Shown: piece by piece, positions 10,811 through 40,545 of the stretch
Numbering within the stretch: position 1 is the stretch's first letter
Layout: every line of letters begins with the position of its first letter
Source: Planctomycetota bacterium
GTDB taxonomy: Bacteria > Planctomycetota > MHYJ01 > WSZJ01
Direction: 5' to 3'
DNA length: 64,000 bases
Assembly: GCA_038060895.1 (NCBI GenBank)
Contig: JBBTCT010000022.1
Coordinates: forward strand, 32,001 to 96,000
The notes under the pieces: model-generated
Told to the model about the DNA's origin: nothing
The model's database searches: none
Seen by the model: only the letters and a program-made list of their open reading frames with translations
Position numbers and translations under genes: made by a program

Positions 10811-10873
10811 GCTGCGCCTCCTCCGGATGGTGAATCGCGATTTCTGCGCGCGGAATGCCCGGTGAGGGGCGGA

Positions 10874-14861: not shown

Positions 14862-14863
14862 GC

Positions 14864-15424: not shown

Positions 15425-15427
15425 GGG

Positions 15428-21401: not shown

Positions 21402-22423
21402 TGAAAGCGGCTGTCTACTATGCGGGCGCGAAAGGTCTCGAGATCAAGGACGTCCCGGTTCCCGAGCCGGCGCCCGGGGAAGCGCGGGTGAAGGTGGCCG
21501 CGTGCGGGCTCTGCCATACGGACCTGCACTATCTCGACCATGGCGTCCCGACGTTCAAGAAGCCGCCGATCATCCTGGGGCACGAGCCCGCGGGTCATGT
21601 GGACGCGCTGGGCGCCGGGGTGACGAACGTGAAGCCGGGCCAGGCCGTGCTCGTCCCGGCGGTTCTCACCTGCGGCGAGTGCACCCTCTGCCGGACGGGC
21701 CGGTCGAACATCTGCGAGCGGATGCAGATGCTCGGGAACCACATTGACGGAGCGTTCGCGGAGTTCGTGTGCGTCCGCGCGCGCGACCTGGTTCCGCTTC
21801 CCGCCGGGCTCGATCCCGTGGAAGCCTCGATCGTGGCCGACGCGGTGACGACGGCGTTTCACGCGGTCGTGCACAGGGCGCAGGTCCGGCCCGGCGAGAC
21901 GGTGGCGATTTTCGGGTGCGGCGGAGTGGGTCTGTCGGCGGTGCAGTTCGCGGCGCTGGCCGGCGCCTACGTCATCGCCGTGGATCTTGACCCGGCGAAA
22001 CTCCTGCTGGCGCGCCAGCTGGGCGCCGCCGACACGGTCGATGCGAAGGCGGATCCCGAGCCCGCGAAGACGATCAAGAAGAAGACTGGCGGCGGCGTGG
22101 ACAAGGCGATGGAGTGCATCGGCAGCCCGAAAGTCATCCCCGTGGCGCACAACTCCGTCCGCGCCGGGGGCCGGCTGGTCATCGTCGGGTTCGCCGACAA
22201 GCCGGTCGAACTCAATGCGGGGAAGATCATGTTCATGGAGCAGGAGGTCATCGGGTCCCTCGGTTGCCGGCCCGTGGATTTCCCGCGGGTCCTCGAAATG
22301 TGCGCCTCCGGCCGCTACAAGCTTGCTCCGCTCGTGACCTCGAGGCGCCCGCTCGAGCGCGTGAACGAAGCGCTGGACGAATTGAGAGCGGGAAAGAGCG
22401 TGAGAAGCGTCGTCATCCCCTGA
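21401..22423 (+). CDS. had: 6-hydroxycyclohex-1-ene-1-carbonyl-CoA dehydrogenase (Zn-ADH)
   Basis: CGLCHTDL, GHE, VPAVLTCGECTLCRTGRSNIC; context. Confidence 0.82.
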   Translation: MKAAVYYAGAKGLEIKDVPVPEPAPGEARVKVAACGLCHTDLHYLDHGVPTFKKPPIILGHEPAGHVDALGAGVTNVKPGQAVLVPAVLTCGECTLCRTGRSNICERMQMLGNHIDGAFAEFVCVRARDLVPLPAGLDPVEASIVADAVTTAFHAVVHRAQVRPGETVAIFGCGGVGLSAVQFAALAGAYVIAVDLDPAKLLLARQLGAADTVDAKADPEPAKTIKKKTGGGVDKAMECIGSPKVIPVAHNSVRAGGRLVIVGFADKPVELNAGKIMFMEQEVIGSLGCRPVDFPRVLEMCASGRYKLAPLVTSRRPLERVNEALDELRAGKSVRSVVIP

Positions 22424-23132
22424 GAGCCCGCGCCCGGCCCGCGGATCCGCCCGACCTCCTGATTTCCCTCGTTGCGGGCCTGGAACGGCCGTACGTCTTG
22501 AATTTTGCGAGCAGTTCCGCGACGTCCGGCTCCGCCAGGATCACCGGCGAACCCGCCGACAGCGCGGCAAGGAACATCGCCGCCAGCACTTCCAGTTGCT
22601 GCGCCCACCTCAACGCCTCTTCCACGGTTTCACCGATGGCCACGATCCCGTGATTCGACATCAGGCAGGCTCTCCGGTCCTCCAGAGCCTGCACCGAAGC
22701 CCGGGCGAGCGCCTCCGTGCCGTACGGGGCGTACGGAGCGCAACGGATGTCGGCGCCGCCGAACATGGGCACGGAGTAATGGAACGCGGGAATGGCAAGG
22801 CGAAGGCACGCGACGGCCGAGGCATGAAGCGGGTGGGCATGAACGATTCCTTCCACGTCCGGCCGGGCCTCATAGATGGCCCGGTGGAGCCGCCACTCGG
22901 TTGAAGGCTCAGCTCCGTCATGCCAGGCGCCGGCGAGGGAAACCCGGGAAAGGCTCCCGGGGGCGACTTCGTCGTACGGCACCGCCGTCGGCGTGATCAC
23001 GAACATCCCCGGATCCTCGAGGCGCGCGGAGACGTTCCCGGAGGTTCCGTGGTTGATGCCGGAACGGTTCATCTCCAGGGCCGCTTCGACGACGCGGGTG
23101 CGGATGGTTCGGCCGGCTGACGGCGGGATCAC
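22413..23132 (-). CDS. class II aldolase, FucA-like (start uncertain)
   Basis: GTSGNVS, PSTEWRLH, HAH, NHG. Confidence 0.88.
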   Translation of the reverse strand: MIPPSAGRTIRTRVVEAALEMNRSGINHGTSGNVSARLEDPGMFVITPTAVPYDEVAPGSLSRVSLAGAWHDGAEPSTEWRLHRAIYEARPDVEGIVHAHPLHASAVACLRLAIPAFHYSVPMFGGADIRCAPYAPYGTEALARASVQALEDRRACLMSNHGIVAIGETVEEALRWAQQLEVLAAMFLAALSAGSPVILAEPDVAELLAKFKTYGRSRPATREIRRSGGSAGRARALRG

Positions 23133-23146
23133 GGATGCACGATATA

Positions 23147-23165
23147 TAGTAAATGCCATTAAATA
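23147..23165. promoter_or_regulatory. operator palindrome, site 3 (aldolase/DUF1800 divergent region)
   Basis: TAGTAAA-TGCCA-TTAAATA. Confidence 0.8.
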
Positions 23166-23224
23166 AATGGAAACCTTCGGGGCCCAGCCGGGTTTCCATC
23201 CCGGACGCCCTTCGGAGAACCCCG

Positions 23225-24712
23225 ATGCCCAATCCCCTCGCCCCGGTCACTACCTCTTCGTGGGACCGCTCCCGCGCCCGTCACCTCCTCAACCGCGCCG
23301 GTTTCGGGATCCCGCTTCATGAGGTAGATCGCCTCGCCGCCATGTCCCCTGAGGCCGCGGTCGCCCGCTTCGTCGAATTTGAGGCGCGCCCCGACTGGTT
23401 CCAGCCCCCCGACTTCCTCCCGGCACCGTTTGATTTCGCCGCAAAGCGCCGCGAAGTCGCCGGCCTCACCGAAGAAGAACGCAAGGATCTCTTCAAGGAA
23501 CGCATGCGCGAGGAACACCAGGCAATGGCGCAACTCCAGGACTGGTGGCTCGACCAGATGCTCACCACGCTTCAGCCCCTCCAGGCCAAGCTCACCCTGT
23601 TCTGGCACGGCCACTTCGCCACGTCCGCCCAGAAAGTAAAGTCCTGCCGCAACAACTGGCAGCTCTTCCAGGTGTTCCGCGAAAAGGCTGCAGGGAGTTT
23701 CCGGGAACTGGTCCGCAGCGTCGGGAAGTCGCCCGCCATGCTCGAGTACCTCGACAACGAGAAGAACAAGAAGGGGCACCCGAACGAGAACTGGGCCCGC
23801 GAGCTGATGGAGCTGTTCACGATGGGGCGCGGGAACTACACGGAGGACGACATCAAGGAAGCGGCGCGCGCATTCACGGGGTGGATGCGCGTCGGCGAGA
23901 AGTTCTGGTTCAACGCGCACGCGCACGACGACGGCGTGAAGACGGTCCTGGGCCGGAAGGGCGACTTCGACGGCGACCAGGTTGTGGACATCGTCGTGGA
24001 GAACCCCGCCACGGCGAAGTTCGTGGCGAAGAAGATGTGGGAGTTCTTCGCGTACGAGGAGCCCGAGACTGAGGTCGTCGAAGGGCTCGCGCGTGTTTTC
24101 ACGGAGGCGAAATTCGAGCTCAAGCCGCTTCTCCGGGCGATGTTTCTCTCGGAGGCGTTCTACTCGCCGCGCTCCGTTGGGAACCAGGTCAAGAGCCCGG
24201 TGCAGCTGGTGCTCGGGCTTCTGGACGGCCTGGACGTCCCGCTGGCGCTGGAGTCGGGGCGGTTCGCGCGGCTCATCCTGACCGGGCTGGGGCAGGATCT
24301 GTTCCACCCGCCGAACGTGAAGGGGTGGCCGGGGAACCGCGCGTGGATCGACACGAACACGCTGCTGCTGCGCTGCAACGCGGCGGGAATTCTCGTCAAC
24401 GGGCTCGACCCGGAAGACATGGCGGGAGGCGAGGGGGAGGGGGCGCGCCGGCGCGGGTTGCCGCGGCGGATCCGGTCGCCGTTCGAGGCGATGAAGTGGG
24501 CGGGGCGGCGGATGGCAGGGGCGAAGACGGCGGAGGAGGCGGCGGACCGTGTGACGGAGATCCTGCTGGGCCGCAGGCCGACGGCAGAGCAGCGCACCGT
24601 GCTGGCGCGCGCGCTGGGCGCCGGGACGGGGCAGGCCTGGAAAGCGAACGAGGATGGGGTGCGCGCGGTCGTGCACCTCGTGACGTCGATGGCGGAATAC
24701 CAACTCTGTTAG
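23225..24712 (+). CDS. DUF1800 family protein
   Basis: HLLNRAGFG, FWHGHFATS, PNENWARELMELFTMG, PPNVKGW. Confidence 0.92.
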   Translation: MPNPLAPVTTSSWDRSRARHLLNRAGFGIPLHEVDRLAAMSPEAAVARFVEFEARPDWFQPPDFLPAPFDFAAKRREVAGLTEEERKDLFKERMREEHQAMAQLQDWWLDQMLTTLQPLQAKLTLFWHGHFATSAQKVKSCRNNWQLFQVFREKAAGSFRELVRSVGKSPAMLEYLDNEKNKKGHPNENWARELMELFTMGRGNYTEDDIKEAARAFTGWMRVGEKFWFNAHAHDDGVKTVLGRKGDFDGDQVVDIVVENPATAKFVAKKMWEFFAYEEPETEVVEGLARVFTEAKFELKPLLRAMFLSEAFYSPRSVGNQVKSPVQLVLGLLDGLDVPLALESGRFARLILTGLGQDLFHPPNVKGWPGNRAWIDTNTLLLRCNAAGILVNGLDPEDMAGGEGEGARRRGLPRRIRSPFEAMKWAGRRMAGAKTAEEAADRVTEILLGRRPTAEQRTVLARALGAGTGQAWKANEDGVRAVVHLVTSMAEYQLC

Positions 24713-24713
24713 C

Positions 24714-24772
24714 GCCCTTCGACTCGCCCTTCGGGCTCGACCACTCTGAGCGAGCGGAGCGAGTCGAAGGGC
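24714..24772. repeat. REP-like intergenic inverted repeat
   Basis: GCCCTTCGACTCGC...GCGAGTCGAAGGGC. Confidence 0.65.
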
Positions 24773-24785
24773 TCAGGAGGTTTTG

Positions 24786-26015
24786 ATGTCCACGAACAAC
24801 GTCGTCTTCACCCGTCGCGAGTTCATGCGGACGTCGGCTGTCGTCAGCGCGGGGCTGACGCTTCCCGCATTCCTCACCGGATGGCGTGGCCTCGCGCAGG
24901 CTGAGGAACCCGGCGCGGGCGGGCGCATCCTCGTCGTCCTGCAGTTGGGAGGCGGCAATGACGGGCTGAACACGCTCGTCCCGTACACGGACGACGCCTA
25001 CCGCCGCGCGCGGCCGACGCTCGGTCTGGCGAAGGAGCGCGTGCTCGACATCGACGGCCGCTTCGGCTTCAACGATTCGCTCGCGGCTATTAAAGGCCTC
25101 TTCGACGACGGGAAAGTCGCCGTCGTCCACGGCGTCGGCTACCCCAACCCCGACCGGTCACACTTCCGCTCCATGGACATCTGGCACACCGCCTCTGACT
25201 CGGACCGCTACGAGACGACGGGCTGGCTCGGGAGGTACTTCCACAACTGCTGCGGCGGGAAGCCGGACCCCGTGACCGGGGTGAATGTGGGGGCGAAGAT
25301 GCCGATGGCGTTTGCGGGAAGCGACGTGGGGGTCTCCTTCACGAACCCGGCGTGGTTCCGGTGGCTGCCGGGGGACGGGGCGGACACGGAGAAGGCGTAC
25401 CGGGAGCTGAACGCGGGGAAGGGTGAGGGGACGCTCGACTACCTGCGGTCGGTTTCGGCGAGCGTGGTGGCGACTTCGGACAAGGTGCAGGCGGTGGCGC
25501 GGAAGCGGCGCGCGGCGGGGGAGTATCCGCAGAGCCGGTTCGCGGACGACCTGAAGACGGTCGCGAACATGATCCTGGGTGGGCTGCCGGCGCGGGTTTA
25601 CTACGTGTCGATGACGGGGTTCGACACGCACGCGGGGCAGGCGGGGACGCAGGATCGGCTGCTGAAGGAGTTCGCGGAGGGGGTGAAGGCGTTCCACGGC
25701 GACCTGGCGAAGGCCGGGGCTGCGGAGCGCGTGCTGATGATGAGCTTCAGCGAATTCGGCCGCCGGGTGGAGCAGAACGCCAGCGGCGGAACCGATCACG
25801 GGACGGCGGGGCCGATGTTCGTGATCGGGGAAGGGGCGTTGCCGGGGCTCAAGGGGACGCCGCCGAAGCTGACGGACCTGGAGCAGGGGGACCTGAAGCA
25901 CACGGCGGACTTCCGCGCGGTGTACGGCGAGGTCGTGTCGCGGTGGCTCGGGGGGGACGCGAAGCAGGTGCTCGGGCGCGACCTGCAGCCCCTGGGGGTC
26001 GTGCGGGCGGTGTAA
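24786..26015 (+). CDS. DUF1501 family Tat-exported protein
   Basis: TRREF twin-arginine; LGGGNDGLN, RSHFRSM, GFDTH, SEFGRR, GTDHG. Confidence 0.92.
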   Translation: MSTNNVVFTRREFMRTSAVVSAGLTLPAFLTGWRGLAQAEEPGAGGRILVVLQLGGGNDGLNTLVPYTDDAYRRARPTLGLAKERVLDIDGRFGFNDSLAAIKGLFDDGKVAVVHGVGYPNPDRSHFRSMDIWHTASDSDRYETTGWLGRYFHNCCGGKPDPVTGVNVGAKMPMAFAGSDVGVSFTNPAWFRWLPGDGADTEKAYRELNAGKGEGTLDYLRSVSASVVATSDKVQAVARKRRAAGEYPQSRFADDLKTVANMILGGLPARVYYVSMTGFDTHAGQAGTQDRLLKEFAEGVKAFHGDLAKAGAAERVLMMSFSEFGRRVEQNASGGTDHGTAGPMFVIGEGALPGLKGTPPKLTDLEQGDLKHTADFRAVYGEVVSRWLGGDAKQVLGRDLQPLGVVRAV

Positions 26016-26056
26016 ATCCCCCGGAATTCCGAAACGCGGGGGCACCCGCAGCTATA

Positions 26057-26075
26057 TAGTTAATCACCTTAACTA
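26057..26075. promoter_or_regulatory. operator palindrome, site 4 (perfect), upstream of the nod-like gene
   Basis: TAGTTAA-TCACC-TTAACTA. Confidence 0.88.
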
Positions 26076-26123
26076 ACGGGGCGCCTTCCGGCGCTCCGTC
26101 CGCCCTCCAGACAGGAGCCTTCC

Positions 26124-28535
26124 ATGAACATCGCCCGATGGCTTGACCGCCGCGAATCCTGGTGGAAGGTCTTCGTCGTCATCTTCGCAGTCAGCGTCAC
26201 CGTCGTCGGCTACATCGGGTACAAGACCTACCAGTACGCCCCGCCGGTCTGCGACTTCGTGGACGAGTCCGGCAAGACCGTCTTCTCCGGCGCCGACATC
26301 ACCGCGGGCCAGAAGGTCTTCCTCCGCTACGGCCTCATGGAATACGGCTCCTTCCTCGGCGACGGCGCCATGCGCGGGCCCGACTTCACCGCGGAGGCGC
26401 TTCACCAGACCGCCCTCTCCATGAACGCGCAGTACGACGCCGAGTGGAGCGTCCGTATCCCCGACCTGGTGCAGCGCAAGGCGATCGTCGAAGCGCTCGT
26501 GCAGAAGGACATCAAGGAGAACCGCTTCAAGGACGGCAAAGTCACGGTGAACGCGGCGCAGGCGGCGGCGTTTGAGCGCCTGCGGCTGTATTACTCGCAG
26601 AAATTCGGGGCCGGCGGCGAACTGGCGGGGAAGGAAGTCTTCAAACCGGAGAACTACATCACCGACCAGGAGAAAATCCGGCACCTCACGGCGTTTTTCT
26701 ACTGGGGAGGCTGGCTCTGCTCTGCCAAACGCCCCGGCTACGAGTACAGCTACACGCACAACTGGCCGTACGACCCGCTGGCGGGGAACGTCCCGCACGG
26801 CGGTCTCGTGATGTGGAGCGTGATCGGAACGCTGGTCGTGATCCTGACGATCGGCGTGATCTTCTACTACTACGGGCGAATGGACCGGGAAGCGGTGCTC
26901 GAGCAGCAGAAGGCGCACCTGCCGCCGCTCGCGACGTCGGATGTGGTGGACCGGTTCAAGCCGACGCCGACGCAGCGCGCGACCTACAAGTTCTTCGCGG
27001 TGGCCGCGCTCCTGTTCCTTTTCCAGGTCACTGCGGGCCTGCTCGCGATCTCGGATTTCGTGAATCTCGTGAGCTGGTTCGGGTTCGACCTGCGGGCGGC
27101 GATCCCCGTCACGATTTCGCGCATGTGGCACTCGCAGTTCTCGGTCCTGTGGATCGCGGTCTGCTGGTTCGCGGCGACGATCTGGGTGATGCCGCTCATC
27201 TGCCGCCCCGAACCTCGCGGCCAGCTCGGCTCGATCAACCTGCTTTTCGCCATGCTGGCGACCGTCGCGGCCGGCGCCATCTTCGGCATTCCCCTCGGCA
27301 TCCACGGCAAGCTCGACTACGGCGACGCGTGGCGCTGGTTCGGCCTGCAGGGCTGGGAGTTCATGCAGATCGGACGAGCGTTCCAGGCCGTGCTCTACTC
27401 GTCCTTCGTCCTCTGGCTCGTGATCATCACCCGCGGCGTCTGGCCCGCGCTCAAGCAGAAGCAGACCTGGTCGCTCCCCAACTGGATGGTCTACTCGATC
27501 GCCGGCATCATTTTCATGTTCAGCGCGTCGTGGGTCGCCAGCCCGGACACCAACTTCGTCATCGCCGACTTCTGGCGCTGGTGCACGATCCACATGTGGG
27601 TCGAAGCGTTCTTCGAGTTGTTTACGACGATCATCGTCGCCTACTTCCTCTACCTCATGGGGTTCGTGTCGCACCTCGTCGCGGCGCGCGTCGTGTACCT
27701 GTCGGCCGTGCTGTTCCTCGGAAGCGGCATGATCGGGATTTCGCACAACTTCTACTGGAACGCGAAGTCGATTGAGACGATCGCGCTCGGCGGCGTCCTC
27801 TCGTCGCTCCAGGTCGCGCCGCTCGTCCTGCTCACGATCGAGGCGTGGCGCTTCCGCCACCTTCCGCAGCACTCGCTCCGCGGCTCCACCCAGACGTTCG
27901 GCCTCGGGGAAGCCTTCCTCTTCCTCGTCGGCGTCAACTTCTGGAACTTCCTCGGCGCCGGCGTGATGGGATTCATGATCAACCTGCCGATCGTGAACTA
28001 CTACCAGCACGGGACGTACCTCACCGTCAACCACGGCCACGCCGCCCTCATGGGCGTCTACGGCAACCTAGCCGTCGCCGCCATGCTCTTCTGCTCCCGC
28101 TGGAACGTCGGCCCGTCTCGCTGGAACGCGAAGCTCCTGCGCACGTCGTTCTGGTCGCTCAACGCCGGCCTCATGTTCATGGTCGTCTTCGATCTCTTCC
28201 CGGTCGGCATCCACCAGCTCGCCGCGGCCATGAACCATGGCTACGCCTACGCGCGCTCGCAGGAGTACCTGTCCGGCACCGTCTTCCAGACCCTGACCTG
28301 GCTCCGTGGCATCGGCGTCGCGGTCTTCGTCACCGGCGGGGTCCTCCCGCTCACGTGGTTCATGGTCACTCGCTGGTTCAACCTCAAGCCGCCCCAGACG
28401 CGCGAAGAGCAGTTCATCGTGCCGCCCTCCGTCCTCGCCGTCTCCAGCCCGAGCGTCCTTACCGCCCGCGGCGTGCCGGACCGGGAGCCCGAAGGCGCCG
28501 GCTTGCTGCGCGACCCGGGGAAGGATCCGCTGTGA
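26124..28535 (+). CDS. qNor-family heme-copper-superfamily protein with NO-dismutase (Nod)-type substitutions
   Basis: GDGAMRGPDFTAEALH, YTHNWPYDP, HMWVEAFFE, GISHNFYW (HH to HN), SSLQVAPL (E to Q), NHGHAA. Confidence 0.85.
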   Translation: MNIARWLDRRESWWKVFVVIFAVSVTVVGYIGYKTYQYAPPVCDFVDESGKTVFSGADITAGQKVFLRYGLMEYGSFLGDGAMRGPDFTAEALHQTALSMNAQYDAEWSVRIPDLVQRKAIVEALVQKDIKENRFKDGKVTVNAAQAAAFERLRLYYSQKFGAGGELAGKEVFKPENYITDQEKIRHLTAFFYWGGWLCSAKRPGYEYSYTHNWPYDPLAGNVPHGGLVMWSVIGTLVVILTIGVIFYYYGRMDREAVLEQQKAHLPPLATSDVVDRFKPTPTQRATYKFFAVAALLFLFQVTAGLLAISDFVNLVSWFGFDLRAAIPVTISRMWHSQFSVLWIAVCWFAATIWVMPLICRPEPRGQLGSINLLFAMLATVAAGAIFGIPLGIHGKLDYGDAWRWFGLQGWEFMQIGRAFQAVLYSSFVLWLVIITRGVWPALKQKQTWSLPNWMVYSIAGIIFMFSASWVASPDTNFVIADFWRWCTIHMWVEAFFELFTTIIVAYFLYLMGFVSHLVAARVVYLSAVLFLGSGMIGISHNFYWNAKSIETIALGGVLSSLQVAPLVLLTIEAWRFRHLPQHSLRGSTQTFGLGEAFLFLVGVNFWNFLGAGVMGFMINLPIVNYYQHGTYLTVNHGHAALMGVYGNLAVAAMLFCSRWNVGPSRWNAKLLRTSFWSLNAGLMFMVVFDLFPVGIHQLAAAMNHGYAYARSQEYLSGTVFQTLTWLRGIGVAVFVTGGVLPLTWFMVTRWFNLKPPQTREEQFIVPPSVLAVSSPSVLTARGVPDREPEGAGLLRDPGKDPL

Positions 28536-28810
28536 AATGGTTTCCCTTCGGGCCCGCGGCGCAAGAGCCGGCGAAGAAACTCCCGGTCATCGACCGCGGT
28601 CTGTGCACGGGCTGCGGCCTGTGCCTCGCCGCCTGCACGAACGGCTGCCTCGCATTTTCGTGGAGCCTCGCCGACCTGAAGCGGCCCGAGTGCTGCACGA
28701 GCGAAGGGCATTGCGCGGCCGCCTGTCCCGATGGGTTCATCGAGATGAAGTGGGTCGCCGCAAAAGGGGAGCGCGGTATTGGTGAGTGGAGCGAAGGGGG
28801 AGTCGCATGA
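28532..28810 (+). CDS. 4Fe-4S dicluster ferredoxin
   Basis: CTGCGLCLAAC and CCTSEGHCAAACP; GTGA-coupled to the upstream gene. Confidence 0.8.
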   Translation: MKWFPFGPAAQEPAKKLPVIDRGLCTGCGLCLAACTNGCLAFSWSLADLKRPECCTSEGHCAAACPDGFIEMKWVAAKGERGIGEWSEGGVA

Positions 28811-29187
28811 CCCCCGCGCGCGTTCTCCTGGAAGAAGCGCTCGCGCTTCTCCGACTCACGGAGGACGCGCCGCTCTCGGAGCGCATCGACGCCGGGGGGA
28901 TGGCCGTCGTCGCGCAGCATCGGGCCGAGGTTCGCCTTGGCGCAAGGCTGCCCGGATGGCCGGACGTCCGGAGCGAGCTTGCCGAACTTTTCGGCGCTCC
29001 TCCTTCCGCCGCCCCTGACTTCGCTTCGTGGCTCGCCGCCCTCCACGCCCGCCTCCGCCCTTCGCACCCGCAGGCCTTCGCCATCGCCCTCCTGCGCCTC
29101 AACGGCCTCGACGATGCGGGCATCGCCGCGCGCCTCGGCCTCGGCGCCCGCCTCGTCCGCCGGATCCGTCAGGACGTCCCATGCTAG
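28807..29187 (+). CDS. truncated ECF-sigma-like HTH protein
   Basis: C-terminal IALLRLNG....IAARLG..R.VRR region-4-like HTH directly before a Ser/Thr kinase. Confidence 0.45.
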   Translation: MTPARVLLEEALALLRLTEDAPLSERIDAGGMAVVAQHRAEVRLGARLPGWPDVRSELAELFGAPPSAAPDFASWLAALHARLRPSHPQAFAIALLRLNGLDDAGIAARLGLGARLVRRIRQDVPC

Positions 29188-30356
29188 TCACGCTCGCCAC
29201 CGCCGCCTGCGCCCGCGCCCCGAGAGCCGCCGGGAGATATCAGGCGTGGGCCGAAGCGCTTGGCTCCATCCGGGCGGATCCGTCGCCGGCCCGCGTGTCC
29301 GAGTTGCTTGCGACCATCCCCGAAGACCAGCGCGCCGACGCCCTGGTGGACCTCCTGTCCGAAGCGCTTCAGATCGCCTGGCGCCGCGCCCCCGCTCCGC
29401 CGCTCGCCGCGTGGCTCGACGCCATTGCGCCCGGTTTCGAACCGCCCGCCGATCTCGTGGAAGCGGAGTTCGTCGCCCGCCACCAGCCGCCGCACGGCGA
29501 TGCGCCGGCTCCCGCAGATTCCTCGCGCCTGCTCGCCGAGGGCCGCTTCATCCTGCTCCGCCGTCTGGGCCGAGGCGCGATGGGAGAGGTGTGGGAAGCG
29601 CGGGACACGGCCGCGGGCAGACTTGTCGCCATCAAGCGCTCGATCGACATGGGGATGGGGGATCGCCTGGAGTGCGAGCGGGAAGTCACTGCCGCGCTCG
29701 ATCACCCCGCCGTCCTCTCCATTCGAGAGATCGGGCGCGACCCGCAGGGCCGCCCCTTCGCGGTCATGCCTCTCGCCTCCGGCCCCAATTTTGACGAGAG
29801 CATCGCCGGCCTTCACCGGATCGCCGGCGACCCGCGGACCCTCCTCGCTCCGTTCCTCGCCGCCTGCGACGCGGTCGCCCATGCGCACTCCCGCGGCGTC
29901 CTGCACCGGGACCTTAAGCCCGCCCACATCGTCCCCGGCGCCGGCGTCCTCGACTGGGGCGTCGCGCGCCGAGCGTCCGCCCCCGACGGTCTCGTCGCGG
30001 GCACCCCCGAGTACATGGCTCCCGAGCAGGCCGACGGCCGCGCCGACGAACGAAGCGACGTCTTCGCGCTCGGCGGAGTTCTCTTTCACATTCTCACCGG
30101 CCGTCCTCCGCGCGCCTGGCCGGACGCGGTGCGACCCGCCTCGTGGGCCGAATTCGTACGCTCGGTACCACTGACCGTGCCAGGCGGATCGCATGCAGCC
30201 CTGCGGCGCGTCTGCCGGCAGGCGATGAACCCCGATCCGCGGGAACGGTTCCTTTCCGCAGGCGCATTCGCCGACCGGCTCCGTCGTTCGAGCGACGCCG
30301 CGCCGTCGTTCTGGCGGCACGTACTGGCCTGGGTGCAGGCCCCTGCCTGTTCATAG
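29181..30356 (+). CDS. Hanks-type Ser/Thr protein kinase
   Basis: LGRGAMGEV, VAIK, HRDLKP, DWG, GTPEYMAPEQ, SDVFALG. Confidence 0.88.
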   Translation: MLVTLATAACARAPRAAGRYQAWAEALGSIRADPSPARVSELLATIPEDQRADALVDLLSEALQIAWRRAPAPPLAAWLDAIAPGFEPPADLVEAEFVARHQPPHGDAPAPADSSRLLAEGRFILLRRLGRGAMGEVWEARDTAAGRLVAIKRSIDMGMGDRLECEREVTAALDHPAVLSIREIGRDPQGRPFAVMPLASGPNFDESIAGLHRIAGDPRTLLAPFLAACDAVAHAHSRGVLHRDLKPAHIVPGAGVLDWGVARRASAPDGLVAGTPEYMAPEQADGRADERSDVFALGGVLFHILTGRPPRAWPDAVRPASWAEFVRSVPLTVPGGSHAALRRVCRQAMNPDPRERFLSAGAFADRLRRSSDAAPSFWRHVLAWVQAPACS

Positions 30357-30391
30357 CCTCCGCCGGCCGCGCCATTCGTTAGGATCTCCCC

Positions 30392-31774
30392 ATGGACCGC
30401 TTCCGAATCCCGCCGGATTCATCCTGCCCGTGCGGCAGCGGACTCGCTTTCAGAATCTGCTGCCTTCGCCGCTGGGGGTCCAGCAGGCCCCGCCGGCCTG
30501 GACCCAAACGCGTCCACAGGCCGCAGCCAGGAAGGCGCGGCGGCGCGCCAACGCCGTCGCAGGTCGCGTCCGGCGGATGGTTCACGCTCTGCCTGGTGAG
30601 CGACCTGGAAGTCGAAGTCGCGCGCCTTGGGAGCGATTCGACGCCGGATTCCATGAAGAGGCTCCAGTCCATCTTTCGGGACGAGAGCCAGCCCGAGACG
30701 ATCCGGCTGATCGCCGCCCATTCCCTCGAGATGAGAAATGCCCTTCAGGACGAGCCGTCGCCGCGCGTCCGCACCGACAGGCCGCTGCCGTTCGCCGAAG
30801 TTCCGTGTCACTGGCTGCGGTTCAGCCCGGTGATTCCCGAGAAATTGGAAGCGAGCTACCAGGAAGCGGCGGGGCTCTTCCGCGAGCAACGATTCGAAGA
30901 GGCGATCCGGTCCTGGGAAGCGCTCGTGCGGGACCATCCGGAAGTCTGCCAACTCCGGGTGCGCCTTGCGCAAGCGCTGGGGTTCGGGGGCAGGAATGCG
31001 GAGGGCATCGAGGTTCTGCGGCAATCGCTTCTTGATCTGCCGGGAGAGCTGACCCCCGCCGCGCTTTTGCTCGAGGGACTCGTCAAGGCCGGGGACCTGG
31101 TCGAATCGACCCGATTCGTGCGCAGCCTGCGGGCGCCGGCGGAGCTTCACGCGAACGGTTACCTCAAGCTGCAGTACGCCCTGGGCAACTGGGAAACCTC
31201 CCTGCAGTACACCCGTCGAGCCCGGGAGCGGCTCTTTTTCGTCCTCAAGGTCACAGAAAAGTCTGACTTTCAGCAGACCGTCATGAAAGCGCTGTCGGAA
31301 GCAAGCCTGACAGCAGGAATCATGGGCGCCCGGCATGAGCGGTGCCTGGAGCTGGCACGGCATCGAGTCCTGCGCGAGTGGCCCCTGCGCCGGTACCTGG
31401 CCCTGTGGAAGCGGGACGAGCTGGAGCTGGTCGGCGCGCAGCGCAATTCGGGGACGCCGGCACCGCAAGACCTCGGCGACCTGGTCGAGGCCGTCGCGGT
31501 CAAGCTCATCTCCCCCGAATTGGCGATGGAGACCTTCCTCGATCCTCTCGACGTCACGGCGCTGCGACACCTGCTCCGCGAGGACGGCCTGCTCCCCCTC
31601 GACGAGTTCCTCAGGCTCTACGCTCCCTTGGAGAATCTGCAGGACACGACGCCTCTCGTCAGCCTCCACCTCGCCGGCTTCCTCTGCACAGGCCGCGTTG
31701 ACGGCCGACGCAGCGTCCTTATCCCGCCCGACATGAAGCCGGTGGCGGAAGCGGTGTGCGCAGGGAACCCATGA
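30392..31774 (+). CDS. SEC-C motif / TPR-containing protein
   Basis: CPCGSG..F..CC at the N-terminus; TPR-like helices. Confidence 0.7.
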   Translation: MDRFRIPPDSSCPCGSGLAFRICCLRRWGSSRPRRPGPKRVHRPQPGRRGGAPTPSQVASGGWFTLCLVSDLEVEVARLGSDSTPDSMKRLQSIFRDESQPETIRLIAAHSLEMRNALQDEPSPRVRTDRPLPFAEVPCHWLRFSPVIPEKLEASYQEAAGLFREQRFEEAIRSWEALVRDHPEVCQLRVRLAQALGFGGRNAEGIEVLRQSLLDLPGELTPAALLLEGLVKAGDLVESTRFVRSLRAPAELHANGYLKLQYALGNWETSLQYTRRARERLFFVLKVTEKSDFQQTVMKALSEASLTAGIMGARHERCLELARHRVLREWPLRRYLALWKRDELELVGAQRNSGTPAPQDLGDLVEAVAVKLISPELAMETFLDPLDVTALRHLLREDGLLPLDEFLRLYAPLENLQDTTPLVSLHLAGFLCTGRVDGRRSVLIPPDMKPVAEAVCAGNP

Positions 31775-32388
31775 AGAGCCCCATTCAAATCCTGACGGTC
31801 GGGCACTCGAACCACCCCACCGAGAAGCTCATCGAGCTTCTCAGGACGCACGGAGTGACTGCAATTGCCGACGTCCGGTCCGCGCCTTTCAGCCGCCACT
31901 CGCCGCAATTCAACCGCGAGACGCTGGAAGCGATCCTGAAACGCGAGGAGCTCGAGTACGTCTTCCTCGGACGAGAGCTCGGCGCACGGTCCGACGATCG
32001 CTCGTGTTACGACGCGGCCGGGCAAGTGCAGTACGGGCGCCTGGCGTCAACGGACCTGTTTCGAAGCGGACTTCAGCGAGTGCTCGAAGGCGCCGAAAAA
32101 CACCGCCTCGCGCTGATGTGCGCGGAGAAAGAGCCGCTGGAGTGTCATCGGACCCTTCTGGTCAGCCTCGAGTTGGCGAAGCAGGGCGTCTCGATATTCC
32201 ACATCCTCGCGAGCGGTCAGCTCGAATCGCACGACGAAACGCTGGATCGGTTGCTGCAGATGGAAAAACTGGGCGGAGCCGATCTCTTCCGGTCCAGAGC
32301 GGACAAGCTCTCGGAGGCCTGCGCGCGGCAGGAAAAACGCATCGCGTACGCCACTGATCCGAATGCCGCCCCGCAAGAAATGCCATGA
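31771..32388 (+). CDS. DUF488 family protein
   Basis: TVGHSNH, DVRSAPFSR, LMCAEK.P..CHR. Confidence 0.9.
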   Translation: MKSPIQILTVGHSNHPTEKLIELLRTHGVTAIADVRSAPFSRHSPQFNRETLEAILKREELEYVFLGRELGARSDDRSCYDAAGQVQYGRLASTDLFRSGLQRVLEGAEKHRLALMCAEKEPLECHRTLLVSLELAKQGVSIFHILASGQLESHDETLDRLLQMEKLGGADLFRSRADKLSEACARQEKRIAYATDPNAAPQEMP

Positions 32389-32455
32389 AAGTGTTAAAAA
32401 CGGGTTCACAAAGAAGTCCGCCGAAGGATGACCTCGCCATCCTCGAGCGGCATGC

Positions 32456-32923
32456 TCAGGCCCCGGCGCGTGCGGTGTCGATCGCGGTCAGCTCGACAAA
32501 GGGAGCCAGGCTCGTAACTCGTCCGTGGCGATCTCGATCCGGATCAGTTCCGACCCACGTCCACGTGGCCTCACCATCGTCGCGAATTTCGACTTCGAGC
32601 GACACGTCACCCGAAGTCCATGCGAGTCCGACGCTGCCTTCAGGTGAAGCGGCGACGAGCGGGCTTGCGAGTCCTGGGATTCCCGCGAGATCAAACACCA
32701 GTTCCCTCGCAACTCGAATGGCCTCCGCGCTAACCGGTGATCCACCGTAGCTATCCCAGTTCTCGAGGACGTTCCCCAACTCCCGGAGTTTTCGATCCAC
32801 CGAAATCTGCCACGCGGCCCACACGCGTTGAGGGTGCGCCTCAAGGCTCGGAGCTACGACCGCCGCCGGACGCACATAGCGGTTCGCGGGCAACTCTCCC
32901 GAAGTCATCGGGGGCACGCTCAT
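32456..32923 (-). CDS. hypothetical protein
   Basis: ATG with RBS; NWDSYGG..A motif. Confidence 0.55.
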   Translation of the reverse strand: MSVPPMTSGELPANRYVRPAAVVAPSLEAHPQRVWAAWQISVDRKLRELGNVLENWDSYGGSPVSAEAIRVARELVFDLAGIPGLASPLVAASPEGSVGLAWTSGDVSLEVEIRDDGEATWTWVGTDPDRDRHGRVTSLAPFVELTAIDTARAGA

Positions 32924-33392
32924 GAGTCTTTCCTTCCCTAGCGCTCGCGCTGGAACACTTCCGTAGTCGTGGCCAGGAACCCGTGAAGACGCGAGCCGGA
33001 GTCGCCGCCCTCGAGCAACTCCTCGAGGCCACCCGAAGCCTGCCTTGGCAGAAGGCCGACCCGGTTGGCGAAGGCGACGAGTACCGCGCTCAGCAGGGCG
33101 AGAGGGTCTTCGTCTCCGCGCTGACGCTCGGGGAAGCGCCGGTGCATGTCAGCGTGGTGGTGGCCGGATGGGTGAATCTGACGGGAACGGGGAGACACGC
33201 GGGCACTGGCCACAACCCTCCAGAACTTCGGGGTCCTCGACCGGAACGACAGAGAAGATGCGCGACGTATGCGCCAAGGCGGGGATTTCGCCGCCCGACG
33301 GGGATTCCGCGTGAGCGCAGACGATGGCGGCGTTCGACGCGTACAGAACTCGAGACGAGACTCATGACTTCATCTGCGACTTCCCCCGCGAA

Positions 33393-33464
33393 TTGTCGGG
33401 TGACTTGTCGGGTGACTTGTCGGGTGACTTGCCGGGTGACTTGCCGGGTGACTTGTCGGGTGAC
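33393..33464. repeat. 12-bp tandem repeat, six copies (TTGYCGGGTGAC)
   Basis: read directly; encodes (TRQV)n on the minus strand. Confidence 0.95.
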
Positions 33465-33489
33465 GACACCTTCGAGTTCCTCCGCGGCA

Positions 33490-34025
33490 GGTTTTGACCG
33501 TGGCACCGCCCCTCCAGGGTTCTCCCCTGCTCGGTCAGCCGGTACTTCTGCCGGCTGCTCCTCGGCTTGTCCGGAATGGTGCGCTCCACCCAGTTCTCGC
33601 TCAGAAGTTGATCGAGGTAGTTCCGCTGAAAAGTCTCGCGATCGCGCAACCCCGTCGCCACCTGAAGCTCCCCACTGCTCAGCGGGCCATCGATGCATGC
33701 GCTCAGGGCACGTCGTACCCAGGCGTCGACTTGTCCGGTCGCTTGTCCGGTCACGGCGACGCTGGTGCGCCCGGGACTTCGCCGGATGGTCGCGGCGAAT
33801 CCATCCGTCAGCGCGAATCCCGGATCCTCAAGTCCCGCTCGCCGGCACCGCTCGATCATGTCGCCGATCCCAGTTCCCATCCGCTCGATGTACTTCGTGA
33901 GGTAGAGCGCCTCAGCGAGAAGCGGGTTGCCGGGAACCGAAGCATGGGGACGGCGCAGTTGCGGGAGAGTGAGCGATGGCGGAAGCGTCCCGGGGTTCCA
34001 GACCTCCAATCGGTCAGTGAAAATT
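33490..34025 (-). pseudogene. C-terminal fragment of an ATP-binding (RecG-C-like) winged-HTH protein
   Basis: DRLEVWNPG.LP, NPLLAEAL..YIERMGTG, TIPDKPRS..QKY; N-terminus missing; limits approximate. Confidence 0.75.
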
Positions 34026-34203
34026 CGCCGACAAACCGGTTCGCGCAGCAGGGCACTCGAATCTCCTTCAGCCTTCTCTCCTTGATGTGGCTGTAGCCGA
34101 TCACTTTGTGGCCCTCGGCGATCATGGACGCGTCGGACTTCAACGCCCCCGCCGAAACGATGCCCGGGAGATTCTCGATGGGAGTGATGTGGTAGACCGG
34201 CAT
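34021..34203 (-). pseudogene. N-terminal fragment of a DarT (DUF4433) DNA ADP-ribosyltransferase toxin
   Basis: VYHITPIENLPGI..GALKSD..IGYSHIKERRL..VGEF, broken where VPFYF is expected. Confidence 0.7.
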
Positions 34204-34254
34204 TCTTCTGATCAGGGGCGTCACGCCGGAGAGCTTGAGGATGTCTGCCTGCAA

Positions 34255-34432
34255 AATCAAGTCGTTGCGTGTCACGAACGCGGATGGCGAGGCCGAGGAC
34301 TAGCTCGAGGATTTCGTGGTCGTCGAGGGCGTCGAGACTGGCGCGGGAGAGGCGGGCGCGGAGGCGCTGGCGGTGGCCTTGCGCGTCGTGGCGTTTGCGA
34401 GGGGCCGGCTCGACGGAGTGCTGAGTCTGCAT
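34255..34432 (-). pseudogene. N-terminal fragment of RadC
   Basis: GHRQRLRARL...LDDHEILELVL..AI..RDT; JAB domain absent. Confidence 0.7.
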
Positions 34433-34608
34433 GGCCCGAGAGCTTGCGCCGATCATTGATTTTCTCCTGAGGCCTTTCCGATTCCCCTCCGATCATTGAA
34501 CCCGGCGCAGGCTCCATATGTTCACGAAAACTTCTGTTTTGCAGAATTTATGCCTTGAAATCTGATGAAGATAGGTTATTGTTAATCCATCTGAACGAGG
34601 AGGACGGC

Positions 34609-35721
34609 ATGCCTTTGGGCGACCGGCTGCGCTTTGCACGGGAACGATCTGGACTCACGCAGTCCGAGGTGTCGCTTCGAACCGAAGTCGGGGAATCCTC
34701 GCTCTCCGAGTTTGAGAGCGGACGGCGGGAGCCAAGCCTCGGACAGCTGGAAACGCTCGCAAAGGCGTATCACCGGCCGTGGACCTGGTTCGTGGAGTCG
34801 ACACCCGTCGAGTCCGCTCCCCTCGTTCTCTGGAGACACAAGCCAACATCGGGGGCGTCCGAAGTCGAGGCGCACTTCCTCGAATTGTGCCACGCGTTCC
34901 GCCGGCTGGAGATTCTCGAAAAGGAACCGGAGGGGCCAGGGTTGCTGATGGTTCTCCGAAAAGCCGACAAGTGGACTTACTCCGACGCAATAGACCTGGC
35001 GCGGAGAGTTCGCAATTCCCTCGCGCTCGGCGACCGTCCCGGTCCTTCACTGCTGCGCGTGCTCGAAGAAGTCTGGAAACTCAAGATCTTCCACCTGGAC
35101 TTCGAGCCTGAGGGAACGGCGGCATCCCATTTTTCCGACGAGATCGGGGGCTCGATTCTTCTGAATCGCCGAAGCGTCCGGTGGCGGAGGAACCACGACC
35201 TGGCGCACGAGCTGTTTCATCTGCTCACGTGGAAGGCCTTTCACTGCGACGGCCAGGCGCCGACGGAAGATGAGTGGCGACACGAGGAGAAGCTGGCGAC
35301 AAGCTTCGCCGCGGCGCTTCTTCTTCCGGAAGAGCCGTTCCGCGCGGCAATCGCCGAGCACAGCCATGGCGGCCGAATTGATGTGGATGCACTTCATGAC
35401 GTCGCACGGTCCTTCGATGTCTCCGTAGAATCCGCAATCTGGCGATTGCACATCCTCTTCAAAGGCCCGGACGAGAGCGACGACACGCGTCGACTGATCG
35501 AGAAGGCGAAGGCTCTGAAGTCCACGCTGTCGCTACGCCAGGATTCGCCCGCCCCGGAGTTCCCGGCGAGATACGAAGCTCTGGCCTGGCGTGCCCTCAG
35601 AAGTGGGAGGCTTTCCGTGGGAGCTTTCTCACGGACGATGAATTTGCCGCGGGCAAGAGTTCTGCGGCTTCTTGGCGAGGACGAATGGAATGGCGAAGAA
35701 ATTCCGATTCCTTCTCCTTGA
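34609..35721 (+). CDS. XRE HTH plus ImmA/IrrE-family metallopeptidase
   Basis: N-terminal HTH (LRFARERSGLTQ..ESGRREP); LAHELFH; FAAALLLP. Confidence 0.9.
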   Translation: MPLGDRLRFARERSGLTQSEVSLRTEVGESSLSEFESGRREPSLGQLETLAKAYHRPWTWFVESTPVESAPLVLWRHKPTSGASEVEAHFLELCHAFRRLEILEKEPEGPGLLMVLRKADKWTYSDAIDLARRVRNSLALGDRPGPSLLRVLEEVWKLKIFHLDFEPEGTAASHFSDEIGGSILLNRRSVRWRRNHDLAHELFHLLTWKAFHCDGQAPTEDEWRHEEKLATSFAAALLLPEEPFRAAIAEHSHGGRIDVDALHDVARSFDVSVESAIWRLHILFKGPDESDDTRRLIEKAKALKSTLSLRQDSPAPEFPARYEALAWRALRSGRLSVGAFSRTMNLPRARVLRLLGEDEWNGEEIPIPSP

Positions 35722-36214
35722 TGCCGACGTCCTGATCGAGTTGTGGCGGCGCGGCGTGTGGAAACATCTCCTGACGCTCTGCGATGTCACGATCGTCGAG
35801 ACAGTGCGCCATGAGGCGCGCTTCTTTGAAGATGCCGAGGGAAGCCGGCATGACATCGACCTGGACCCGGACATCGCGTCCGGAGACGTGAAGGTCGTTC
35901 AGGTTCCGATCGCGGAAATCCAGAAGCTGATGGAAGACATTCCTGTCTCCTGGCACCCCGACATGAATCCTGGTGAAACCGCTTCGCTTGCGTGGCTGCT
36001 GGCACAGCCTCCGGAACCGGCGTACCTGGTCTGCTCTGCGGACCACATCACGTTTCGCGTGCTCGGAATGAAACGAAGATCCGCGGCCGGGATTTCACTC
36101 GAGGAAGTTCTCGCTTCAATCGGGCGCGTCCAGAAGCTCGCGAGGCACTTCACGAAGCAGTACCGCGAGGACATCAGTCGACAGGGTTTCGCGGATGGAA
36201 TCACGGCGAGCTAG
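35690..36214 (+). CDS. PIN-domain-like protein (putative toxin)
   Basis: LLLDADVLI, GE.ASLA, SAD; overlaps the IrrE-like gene. Confidence 0.7.
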   Translation: MAKKFRFLLLDADVLIELWRRGVWKHLLTLCDVTIVETVRHEARFFEDAEGSRHDIDLDPDIASGDVKVVQVPIAEIQKLMEDIPVSWHPDMNPGETASLAWLLAQPPEPAYLVCSADHITFRVLGMKRRSAAGISLEEVLASIGRVQKLARHFTKQYREDISRQGFADGITAS

Positions 36215-36313
36215 CCCGCAGACCTCGCTTCACGCATTGATTTCTTCCGCGGGGCGCGGGTGATGGTGCGATTCCCCGACCCGAACAGATTCCCGGCTAC
36301 GATGACCACGAAC

Positions 36314-37120
36314 CTACCGGCAAGCCGCCGCTTCCGCCATCCGCTTCTTCGCCCTCTGCATCCCCAGCACCGCTGCGCCGAGGGCCGCCGCGAACTGCGG
36401 GTGCTCGGGGAGGTTCACGGGGATGGCGAACTTGCGTTTGCAGGCCTCGACGAAGCCGCTCTGAAGAGCGACGCCGCCGACGAGGGTGACGGGACCGTTC
36501 AGGCCGACTTTTCGCAACTGCCCCACGGCGCGGTCGGCCATGGACTCGTGCATGCCGCGGGCGATGTCGCCGATCGGGACGTTCTCGGAAACGTGGTTGA
36601 TGATTTCGGACTCCGCGAGGACGGCGCAGACGCTCGAGATCGGCTGGATCCCTTTCGCGTCGACGGAGAGCTTGCCGAGCGAATCGAGCGGAACCTCAAG
36701 GTACTTCGCGGCCCGCACCAGGAACGCCCCGCCGCCGGCCGCGCACTTTTCGTTCGTGTGGAATTCCTTCACCTTGCCGTTGTCGCGCAGGTGGATCGCG
36801 CGGGTGCTCTGCGCGCCCACGTCGAGGACGAAGGAGGCTTTGGGGAAGAGCGTCCACGCGCCGCGGGCGGCGGCGGTGATTTCGGTGACCTGGATGTCGC
36901 GGAAGGTGACGGCGTAGCGGCCGAGGCCCGTCGTGCAGGTGTAGGCGACGTCGGAAGGCGACACCTTTGCGAGGGCAAGCGCCTCGTCCAGCACGTCGCG
37001 CGCGCCCTTGTCGAAGTCCGCGCGCGTCTTGGTGATCGCGCGCGCGAGCACCACGCCGTCGTCGCGGTAGAGGACGGCCTTCGAGAAGCCGCTTCCCAGG
37101 TCAATTCCCGCGCTGATCAT
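36314..37120 (-). CDS. bcrD: class I benzoyl-CoA reductase ATPase subunit (BcrD/BzdP-like)
   Basis: [24 protein letters not shown]. Confidence 0.75.
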
Positions 37121-39215: not shown

Positions 39216-39278
39216 GTTCCAACCTCCGCGCCGCCGTTTTCGCACCATCCCGATCCCCATCCCGATTCCGGCCGTTCT

Positions 39279-40421: not shown

Positions 40422-40457
40422 AACGGCGGTGGCAGAGATTTCCACGGCGAATTGCGT

Positions 40458-40473
40458 TGCAAGCGGGATGCCG
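40458..40473 (-). promoter_or_regulatory. sigma54-like promoter of bcrCBAD
   Basis: minus strand CGGCATCCCGCTTGCA. Confidence 0.6.
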
Positions 40474-40545
40474 TGCAGAGTCGAACGGTGGAGTAGAAGG
40501 TCAGGAGTGACTCCTGACAAGCTCAGGGCAACTTTCCCCTCACGG

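Follow-up and report, generated by a model that had tools for sequence, protein, structure and literature searches.

A Planctomycetota gene with the active-site substitutions of putative nitric oxide dismutases, placed outside canonical Nod and outside quinol-dependent nitric oxide reductases

Does a gene that carries the active-site residues of a putative nitric oxide (NO) dismutase (Nod) encode a dismutase, an NO reductase or something else? The question is raised by a Nod-like gene in a 64-kb stretch of DNA (the window, whose positions serve as coordinates throughout) from a metagenome-assembled genome (MAG) of a Planctomycetota bacterium, numbered G000 in our genome set. The original prediction was of a paralogue of quinol-dependent NO reductase (qNOR) with Nod signature residues. 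We found that the protein has the full set of these residues as a fixed trait and falls into a Planctomycetota-centred branch of its own, beside canonical Nod. The chemistry of this branch can be proposed more tentatively, and an N2O-forming reductase has to be weighed against dismutation.

The gene (Table 1) is an uninterrupted open reading frame (ORF) from ATG to TGA with an 803-aa product, a ribosome-binding site resembling AGGAG some 9 nt upstream of its start codon and a GC content at third codon positions of 0.93, the same as that of neighbouring genes. The predicted protein has an N-terminal transmembrane helix, a NorC-like periplasmic domain and a COX1-type membrane core, with Pfam matches over cut-off to PF22085 (NorB cytochrome c-like domain; residues 45-216, E 2.2e-46) and PF00115 (COX1 core; residues 286-733, E 1.7e-40). 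The closest solved structure was the qNOR of Geobacillus stearothermophilus (3AYF_A; HMMER E 3.3e-140), which aligned over 746 residues (query 16-761, chain 27-774). There was no heme c motif in the periplasmic domain (zero CxxCH), as expected of the qNOR family, and an NCBIfam search assigned the protein to no family. These matches assign the predicted product to the qNOR-type NO reductase family of the heme-copper oxidase superfamily, and the predicted fold is settled by the sequence similarity to 3AYF.

Residue equivalences were taken by position count along the HMMER alignment to 3AYF_A, with G. stearothermophilus numbering for qNOR. Five of the six metal-ligand histidines of the qNOR family are present in the Nod-like protein, and the sixth, the FeB ligand His560, is Asn542 (AAC); the catalytic-site Glu581 is Gln563 (CAG). 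All three residues of the quinol site are substituted as well, with Ser310 standing where qNOR has His328, Asn314 where it has Glu332 and Val732 (GTC) where it has Asp746. The preserved histidines (qNOR = Nod-like) are His355 = His336, His508 = His490, His559 = His541, His651 = His637 and His653 = His639, and the preserved glutamates are Glu512 = Glu494 and Glu516 = Glu498; heme b and heme b3 thus keep their ligands, and FeB keeps two histidines out of three. The roles of the individual histidines (two for heme b, one for heme b3, three for FeB) are assigned after the NOR structure literature. The strings quoted in the original prediction, GISHNFYW(NAK), SSLQVAPL, AGLLAISDF and (W)VEAFFE, all occur in the translation, and the codons given for Asn542 and Gln563 proved correct. 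The substitutions also match the published Nod signature, as the original prediction stated: in Ettwig et al. 2012 (PMC3413370), putative NO dismutases are described as having one FeB His-to-Asn change, a nearby Glu-to-Gln change and no proper quinol site.

We took the best 120 of 2105 relatives (E <= 0.001) found among 8000 candidates scored in a word-indexed search. These homologues were 65-100% identical to the window protein and about 800 aa long, and their labels, where present, named Planctomycetes or Planctomycetota, Planctomycetia, Verrucomicrobiota or Verrucomicrobiales, Ca. Scalindua and Gammaproteobacteria MAGs. In the alignment, position 542 was Asn and position 563 was Gln in 120/120, the seven preserved ligand and Glu positions were invariant (120/120), and His at 310, Glu at 314 and Asp at 732 were found in none (0/120). 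Nei-Gojobori ratios of nonsynonymous to synonymous substitution (dN/dS) were 0.06 against the orthologue of the same-genus genome G229 (803 codons) and 0.18 against that of the same-genus G197 (801 codons). Because the substitutions are conserved in every one of these homologues and the dN/dS values are of this order, we regard the unusual residues as a fixed trait of a large family, more than chance; the gene is under purifying selection.

The reference set of canonical Nod, named genomes and ordinary qNORs was gathered by sequence searches. A cluster representative of 42% identity, used as query, led to a family that JGI labels in part as 'nitric oxide dismutase', Magnetovibrio included, and a search with an Acidobacteria locus led to the Methylomirabilis oxyfera protein CBE69496.1, probably DAMO_2434. 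A scan of genome contigs matched at least 599 stretches, of which 590 were confirmed and 80 kept. Among the latter were the Gamma-type Nod MAG NP964 (L006), which Elbon et al. (bioRxiv 10.1101/2023.11.21.568154) cite, five Planctomycetota, ordinary qNORs and the Bacteroidota Algoriphagus, Allomuricauda, Flavisolibacter, Maribacter, Saprospiraceae and Lewinellaceae. In the trees, NP964 stood in for HdN1 and a Neobacillus qNOR (P0126) for that of Geobacillus. Two trees were built with IQ-TREE (LG+C20+F+G4 with posterior mean site frequencies (PMSF), short search, support by the Shimodaira-Hasegawa-like approximate likelihood ratio test, SH-aLRT), the first of 70 rows and the second of 67 rows, with seven long-branched qNOR rows removed and four Methylomirabilis-group rows added; a third was built with FastTree (120 rows by 784 columns). 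SH-aLRT values for single clades below are those of the 67-row tree.

All His-Asn proteins formed a single clade (SH-aLRT 100; FastTree 1.0). In the FastTree tree, 70/70 His-Asn rows lay inside it with no His-His row among them, and 0/50 of the rows outside were His-Asn. The clade divided into canonical Nod (19 rows including CBE69496.1, SH-aLRT 90; 100 when joined with a three-row sister 'V' group), a Planctomycetota-type clade of 13 rows that holds the window protein (100), and a Bacteroidota and Scalindua-like group (92). The last two were joined as sisters in both IQ-TREE trees (94-96) and in FastTree (0.981), which repeated the topology (canonical Nod 1.0, Planctomycetota-type 1.0, Bacteroidota/Scalindua-like 0.932). 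Sequences labelled Scalindua appeared in two places, one (P0084) beside the window protein and another (L030) in the Bacteroidota-side group.

Motifs distinguished three states in a table of 116 rows: that of qNOR (HH, E and the quinol His), that of canonical Nod (VEVTFEV, HNFYWIAK, STLQVLP, TGNHAHAAM) and a third that the Planctomycetota group shares with the Bacteroidota (VEAFFE, HNFYWNAK, S-x-L-Q, TVNHGHAAL). The canonical-Nod motifs VEVTFEV, HNFYWIAK and TGNHAHAAMFGVKG are absent from the window protein, which reads VEAFFEL, HNFYWNAK and TVNHGHAALMGVYG. Its identity is 42% with M. oxyfera Nod (761 positions compared) and 32-38% with qNOR-type representatives (alignment A1), whereas the canonical Nod relatives listed were 64-90% identical to a canonical Nod query. 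The window protein lies firmly outside canonical Nod and outside qNOR, and on identity and clade placement alone it is very probably a member of the Planctomycetota-centred sister branch. An NO dismutase of the Methylomirabilis kind, as first predicted, does not agree with a position outside the clade of CBE69496.1 and NP964. The trees and the motif table instead support the fallback of that prediction, a sister clade marked by FYWNAK and EAFFE, with the correction that the protein sits in a separate Planctomycetota-centred branch and not with the Bacteroidota group; the possibility that it branches inside canonical qNOR was also checked, and it branches outside (SH-aLRT 100).

Several sequences stood apart from these patterns. 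Two His-Asn variants from Planctomycetota, L112 (G294; VEGFFEV, which is qNOR-like, with HNFYWNAK and STLQVLP) and L113 (G061; VEATFEV, HNFYWIAK and STLQVLP, near canonical Nod), may be intermediates between clades. We also observed a canonical-Nod-type gene in a Flavobacteriales MAG (L020), a gene within a Bacteroidota subclade in a Thermoanaerobaculia MAG (L024) and a Bacteroidota/Scalindua-side gene in a Melainabacteria MAG (L043). These host labels mismatch the clades, which could be due to horizontal transfer or binning error.

The branch of the window protein is already in print. Fuchsman et al. 2017 (PMC5723336) described 'qnorB-like' operational taxonomic units (OTUs) that bear the Nod active site in many bacteria. 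The 'Planctomycetia-type Nod' of Elbon, Stewart & Glass (bioRxiv 10.1101/2023.11.21.568154) is OTU I, with an identity of about 40% to Alpha-type Nod and a gene neighbourhood that they give as uninformative. By its published description, we equate the branch with 'qnorB-like OTU I'/'Planctomycetia-type Nod', to which the window gene adds a member. Elbon et al. separate 'unknown Nor-related' Bacteroidota genes from the Nod types, a cluster also named by Zhu et al. 2020 (PMC7338807), and a 2025 paper in Nature Communications (PMC11828985) annotated Planctomycetota and Bacteroidota genes as nod from the same residues.

The host MAG comprises 5.42 Mb in 47 contigs and is 86.5% complete, and the sequencing runs that best hold the Nod-like gene carry groundwater labels. 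A protein search gave one match to the qNOR family in the MAG, the Nod-like gene itself, which is thus a sole copy and no second one as 'paralogue' had implied; the three matches to PF00115 are this gene and two Cox1 genes. No nirS was found over cut-off in the MAG, and the best matches to nirK (48.8 bits, cut-off 296), nrfA (19.9 bits) and nosZ (TIGR04246; 22 bits, cut-off 625) were all below their cut-offs. The nosZ profile PF18764 matched no control genome, and TIGR04246, used instead, detected nosZ in 2/13 relatives: the two were same-order genomes with scores above 770, and none of the eight same-genus genomes, the host included, was over cut-off (0/8). No N-oxide gene directly adjoins the Nod-like gene.

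Further upstream on the minus strand, positions 2261-11020 hold a predicted complete periplasmic NXR cluster of the Kuenenia/Nitrospira type, accompanied by a sensor kinase (Table 1), and a second cox operon, in addition to that in the window, is present elsewhere in the host genome (G000:C27, about 15.8-21 kb). NXR-type genes in non-anammox Planctomycetota lacking nir genes have been reported previously (PMC10732223). We sampled 300 other Planctomycetota species genomes (301 with the host) and found some qNOR-family gene in 56/300 (E <= 1e-50) and a Planctomycetota-type Nod-like gene in 5/300 (G229, G197, G245, G053 and G025; 67-96% identity). NxrA was also present in 4/5 of these other holders, compared with 67/301 of the sample (E <= 1e-150), and it shared a contig with the Nod-like gene in G229 (about 17 kb apart, as in the window) and G245 (about 49 kb). 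This co-occurrence is only a hint, as three of the six holders, the host included, belong to one genus. No nirK was over cut-off in the five other holders (0/5), and G053 was the only one with a Cytochrom_D1 match, a fragment of 75 residues and 26 bits just above the Pfam cut-off. In three other Planctomycetota genomes (G172:C20, G146:C9 and G037:C55; L106-L108), an NxrA-like gene has a canonical qNOR (HH, E; quinol His in two) at a distance of 1-6 kb, so that NO-handling genes are recurrently found near NXR in this phylum.

We tentatively favour, mechanism included, a reading of the gene as a functional, selectively maintained member of 'Planctomycetia-type Nod'/'qnorB-like OTU I'. NO would be bound and converted at the heme b3/non-heme-metal centre without drawing electrons from the quinol pool, and the whole set of substitutions would have arisen once, in an ancestor common to canonical Nod. 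Such a single shared origin makes us lean to the redox-neutral chemistry proposed for Nod, for which NO disproportionation (2 NO -> N2 + O2) would be the most economical form; N2O + O2 are also possible products. Following Ettwig et al. 2012 (PMC3413370), the loss of the sites where electrons and protons enter speaks against NO reduction driven by quinol. The role of the enzyme would likely be to scavenge or detoxify NO from neighbours or from nitrite side reactions, since we found no NirS, NirK, NosZ or other NOR while NXR and aa3 oxidases are present, and any O2 released could be used by a nearby oxidase. We can extend this to an unlikely scenario for planctomycetes of anoxic groundwater with NXR and no nir genes, in which the Nod-like enzyme dismutates NO that comes from neighbours or is a by-product when periplasmic NXR turns over nitrite, the O2 feeds the aa3-type oxidase encoded between the NXR and Nod-like loci in a private 'dark oxygen' respiration, and the conserved Tat-exported DUF1501 protein and the DUF1800 protein are hitherto unrecognised accessory or maturation factors.

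A number of observations weigh against redox-neutral dismutation by a functional enzyme of this branch. Both ligands of heme b, the electron-transfer cofactor, are kept in 120/120 homologues, and the window protein has qNOR-like residues at positions where canonical Nod differs (VEAFFE/VEVTFE, FYWNAK/FYWIAK and GVYG/GVKG). By the approximately unbiased (AU) test, a tree in which canonical Nod and the Planctomycetota-type clade are joined directly is not rejected (log-likelihood difference 7.76, p 0.241), because of which the three His-Asn lineages are close to a trichotomy and the sister link between the Planctomycetota-type and Bacteroidota groups is not secure. As the MAG is incomplete (86.5%), the absence of nir and nos genes is not proven. 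Nor is transcription of the gene shown by the aquifer metatranscriptome runs X9 and X12, because their short 99-100% identical contigs are spread evenly over 16-34 kb at a depth of 2-3, which equals that of the DNA run X11 from the same study. Ettwig et al. 2012 (PMC3413370) term the dismutase idea speculation, and Fuchsman et al. 2017 (PMC5723336) argue that qnorB-like genes may still make N2O, with depth maxima of these genes matching the N2O maximum and many holders also carrying nosZ. In the sister clade, Bacteroidota genes have nos or nor neighbours (Elbon et al., bioRxiv 10.1101/2023.11.21.568154; PMC11828985). Finally, our literature search, in which subscription journals were thinly covered, returned no purification or assay study for Nod of any clade.

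The alternative that best survives is an NO reductase (2 NO + 2 e- + 2 H+ -> N2O + H2O) that serves NO detoxification and takes its electrons from a donor other than quinol, for instance a cytochrome of the periplasm or some other redox protein that docks near heme b. We consider this possible, and an N2O-forming reductase nearly as likely as dismutation. The strictly conserved ligands of heme b and heme b3, together with Glu494 and Glu498, would suit such an enzyme, as would the qNOR-like residues retained at positions changed in canonical Nod, the tie of qnorB-like genes to N2O maxima and nosZ-bearing holders (PMC5723336) and the nos/nor neighbours of the Bacteroidota relatives (PMC11828985; Elbon et al.). 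However, no evident donor gene adjoins the Nod-like gene, whose neighbours encode DUF1800, DUF1501 and a Ser/Thr kinase, the periplasmic domain is without CxxCH, and the place of Glu581, a residue implicated in catalysis, is taken by Gln in 120/120 homologues. Such a reductase would also release N2O in a genus where none of eight genomes has a nosZ over cut-off to consume it.

It is quite unlikely that the protein performs no catalytic turnover of NO and instead acts as a sensor or binder of NO or O2, or on another small-molecule substrate, with DUF1800 and DUF1501 belonging to an unrelated periplasmic process. The recurrence of the DUF1800-DUF1501 pair upstream in 5/8 lineages, the lack of a directly adjoining N-oxide gene and a literature search that turned up no biochemical data for the clade would be consistent with this, but the invariant ligands of the binuclear centre and the dN/dS of 0.06-0.18 indicate a working metal site, the entire superclade descends from NO reductases in the trees, and NXR genes lie in the same region. 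An ordinary quinol-dependent qNOR, or a true Nod of the Methylomirabilis/HdN1 clade, is highly improbable: although qNOR is the best solved-structure match, relatives carry the label 'nitric oxide reductase subunit B' in source databases and the three Nod hallmark changes are present, the three quinol-site residues, His560 and Glu581 are all substituted, and the protein branches outside qNOR (SH-aLRT 100) and outside canonical Nod, with 42% identity to M. oxyfera Nod compared to 64-90% among the canonical Nod relatives listed.

The closest upstream neighbours of the gene are a conserved pair of genes that encode DUF1800 and DUF1501 proteins, separated by 70 nt from each other and by 108 nt from the Nod-like gene. 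The 5' ends of the DUF1800 ORF and a divergent class II aldolase ORF (22413-23159, minus strand) overlap as called by 7 nt (23153-23159); because of this overlap, and because the Pfam matches start at residues 22 and 44, the true starts of both ORFs probably lie further inward. Homologous pairs with order and orientation unchanged occur in G197, G229, G053, L032, L034 and L047, at 0.1-3.4 kb upstream of the Nod-like gene. This amounts to 5/8 lineages with the genus counted once, and DUF1800 homologues lie upstream of the Nod-like gene at L101, L102, L104, L032, L034 and L047. The flanks examined in L029, G245 and G025 did not contain the pair. The linkage looks real because the host genome has only 5 DUF1501 and 4 DUF1800 paralogues and because, of all DUF1501 matches across the G053 genome, the best is the copy adjoining its Nod-like gene. 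Neither DUF1800 nor DUF1501 has a solved relative by sequence, and the papers naming both families in our literature search do not address their function. The Ser/Thr kinase downstream has 87 paralogues in the genome and was discounted as a functional partner.

Table 1. Genes, active-site codons and a candidate regulatory element in the 64-kb window, by position
Feature	Position	Strand	Evidence and remarks
GAF-PAS histidine (sensor) kinase	312-2132	-	
NarJ-like chaperone	2261-3028	-	
4Fe-4S subunit	3079-4353	-	
NxrA, 1227-aa molybdoenzyme with twin-arginine translocation (Tat) signal	4724-8407	-	1773 bits, full length, to Kuenenia NxrA PDB 7B04_B
Cytochrome c and EB_dh NxrC-like protein	9149-11020	-	
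coxII-coxI-coxIII (aa3-type) operon	12172-16048	+	Between NXR cluster and Nod-like gene
DUF1800 gene, first of conserved upstream pair	23153-24712	+	PF08811, E 6e-116
DUF1501 gene with Tat signal	24783-26015	+	PF07394 and TAT_signal; 108 nt upstream of Nod-like gene
AT-rich perfect palindrome (6-nt arms, 5-nt spacer)	26058-26074	.	About 50 nt upstream of start codon; candidate operator
Nod-like qNOR-family gene, 803 aa	26124-28535	+	Translation, Pfam, 3AYF_A alignment
Former quinol site in membrane core: Ser310 (TCG, 27051-27053) and Asn314 (AAT, 27063-27065)	27051-27065	+	3AYF_A alignment; His310/Glu314 in 0/120 homologues
Asn542 (AAC), replacing FeB ligand His560 of G. stearothermophilus qNOR	27747-27749	+	3AYF_A alignment; Asn in 120/120 of best 120 homologues
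Gln563 (CAG), replacing catalytic-site Glu581	27810-27812	+	3AYF_A alignment; Gln in 120/120 of best 120 homologues
Val732 (GTC), replacing quinol-binding Asp746	28317-28319	+	3AYF_A alignment; V/I/A/T in 120/120 homologues, never Asp
Ser/Thr kinase	29028-30356		Downstream of Nod-like gene

The core pattern of the palindrome upstream of the Nod-like gene (Table 1) occurs once in the 5.4-Mb genome, and near-identical copies are found in the same place in G229 and G197; no copy was found in L034, L104, L047, L032 or L105. A scan of positions 22000-30500 returned no promoter-like sites and four terminator-like sites, compared with 4.7 expected, and Rfam gave no match at gathering thresholds in the whole window. 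We also detected short contigs with 93-97% identity in a sediment metatranscriptome (X20), which covered only the conserved catalytic core (27150-28112) at a word depth of up to 68. The probable source of these fragments is related Nod-like genes in other organisms, and they are not evidence for expression of the window gene.

Two regions further downstream were observed in passing. A stretch of about 6 kb (about 30392-36346) has no counterpart in the syntenic regions of G197 and G229, two genomes of the same genus, and looks like a small inserted island; it encodes a SEC-C/TPR protein, DUF488, a Fic-like/HATPase_c_4 protein and a helix-turn-helix (HTH)-peptidase M78 (ImmA/IrrE-like) protein, and GC falls to 0.60 at 34-36 kb. 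Beyond it on the minus strand (37117-41103) are genes for a BadF/BcrAD-type ATPase, two HGD-D (2-hydroxyacyl-CoA dehydratase-like) proteins and a MarR protein. In G197, G229 and the distant G025, the same ATPase and two dehydratase-like genes follow the Nod-like gene within 2-5 kb downstream.

Nod-type genes commonly serve as markers for dark O2 production and 'oxygenic denitrification', for example in the case of Hydrotalea nod in anoxic groundwater (bioRxiv 10.1101/2022.08.09.503387) and of nod counts from cold seeps (PMC11828985). Sister clades may perform chemistry different from that proposed for Nod, and caution is advised before such genes are taken to prove that N2 and O2 are formed. 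The Planctomycetota-type gene is the sole NOR-family gene in genomes where no NirS, NirK or NosZ was found but NXR and aerobic oxidases are present, a setting more in keeping with NO scavenging than with one step of a denitrification chain. The DUF1800-DUF1501 neighbours and the upstream palindrome conserved in the genus offer concrete handles for experiments.

Set beside known systems, the window protein shares with the qNOR of G. stearothermophilus (PDB 3AYF/3AYG) both Pfam domains, the ligands of the hemes, His508, His559, Glu512 and Glu516, and differs from it by the substitution of His560, Glu581, His328, Glu332 and Asp746. With the Bacteroidota Nod-like cluster (L011-L057: Algoriphagus, Allomuricauda, Flavisolibacter, Maribacter, Saprospiraceae) it has in common VEAFFE, HNFYWNAK, S-x-L-Q and TVNHGHAAL; the window clade is sister to this cluster in the best trees and the window protein lies outside it. 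Cultured holders of the sister-clade gene include Algoriphagus aquaeductus T4, Flavisolibacter ginsengisoli DSM 18119 and Allomuricauda sp. M10. Many members on the Bacteroidota side keep a His at the position of His328 (e.g. L011-L018 and L030), whereas the Planctomycetota-type homologues never do (0/120). M. oxyfera Nod (CBE69496.1) and Gamma-type NP964 resemble the window protein in their qNOR architecture, His-to-Asn and Glu-to-Gln changes, loss of the quinol residues and one shared origin of these substitutions, but the window protein belongs to a separate clade, with 42% identity to M. oxyfera Nod and without VEVTFEV, FYWIAK and TGNHAHAAMFGVKG. The hosts differ too, as we noticed no methane- or alkane-oxidation context in the window host, though no systematic search for such a context was made. 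The closest likeness is to Planctomycetia-type Nod/OTU I, which shares Planctomycetota hosts, Nod-type substitutions, a separate clade, an identity of about 40% to canonical or Alpha-type Nod (42% to M. oxyfera for the window protein) and no recognisable functional gene neighbourhood; the window copy differs in that it comes from a MAG of about 66% GC whose best runs are labelled groundwater and not marine.

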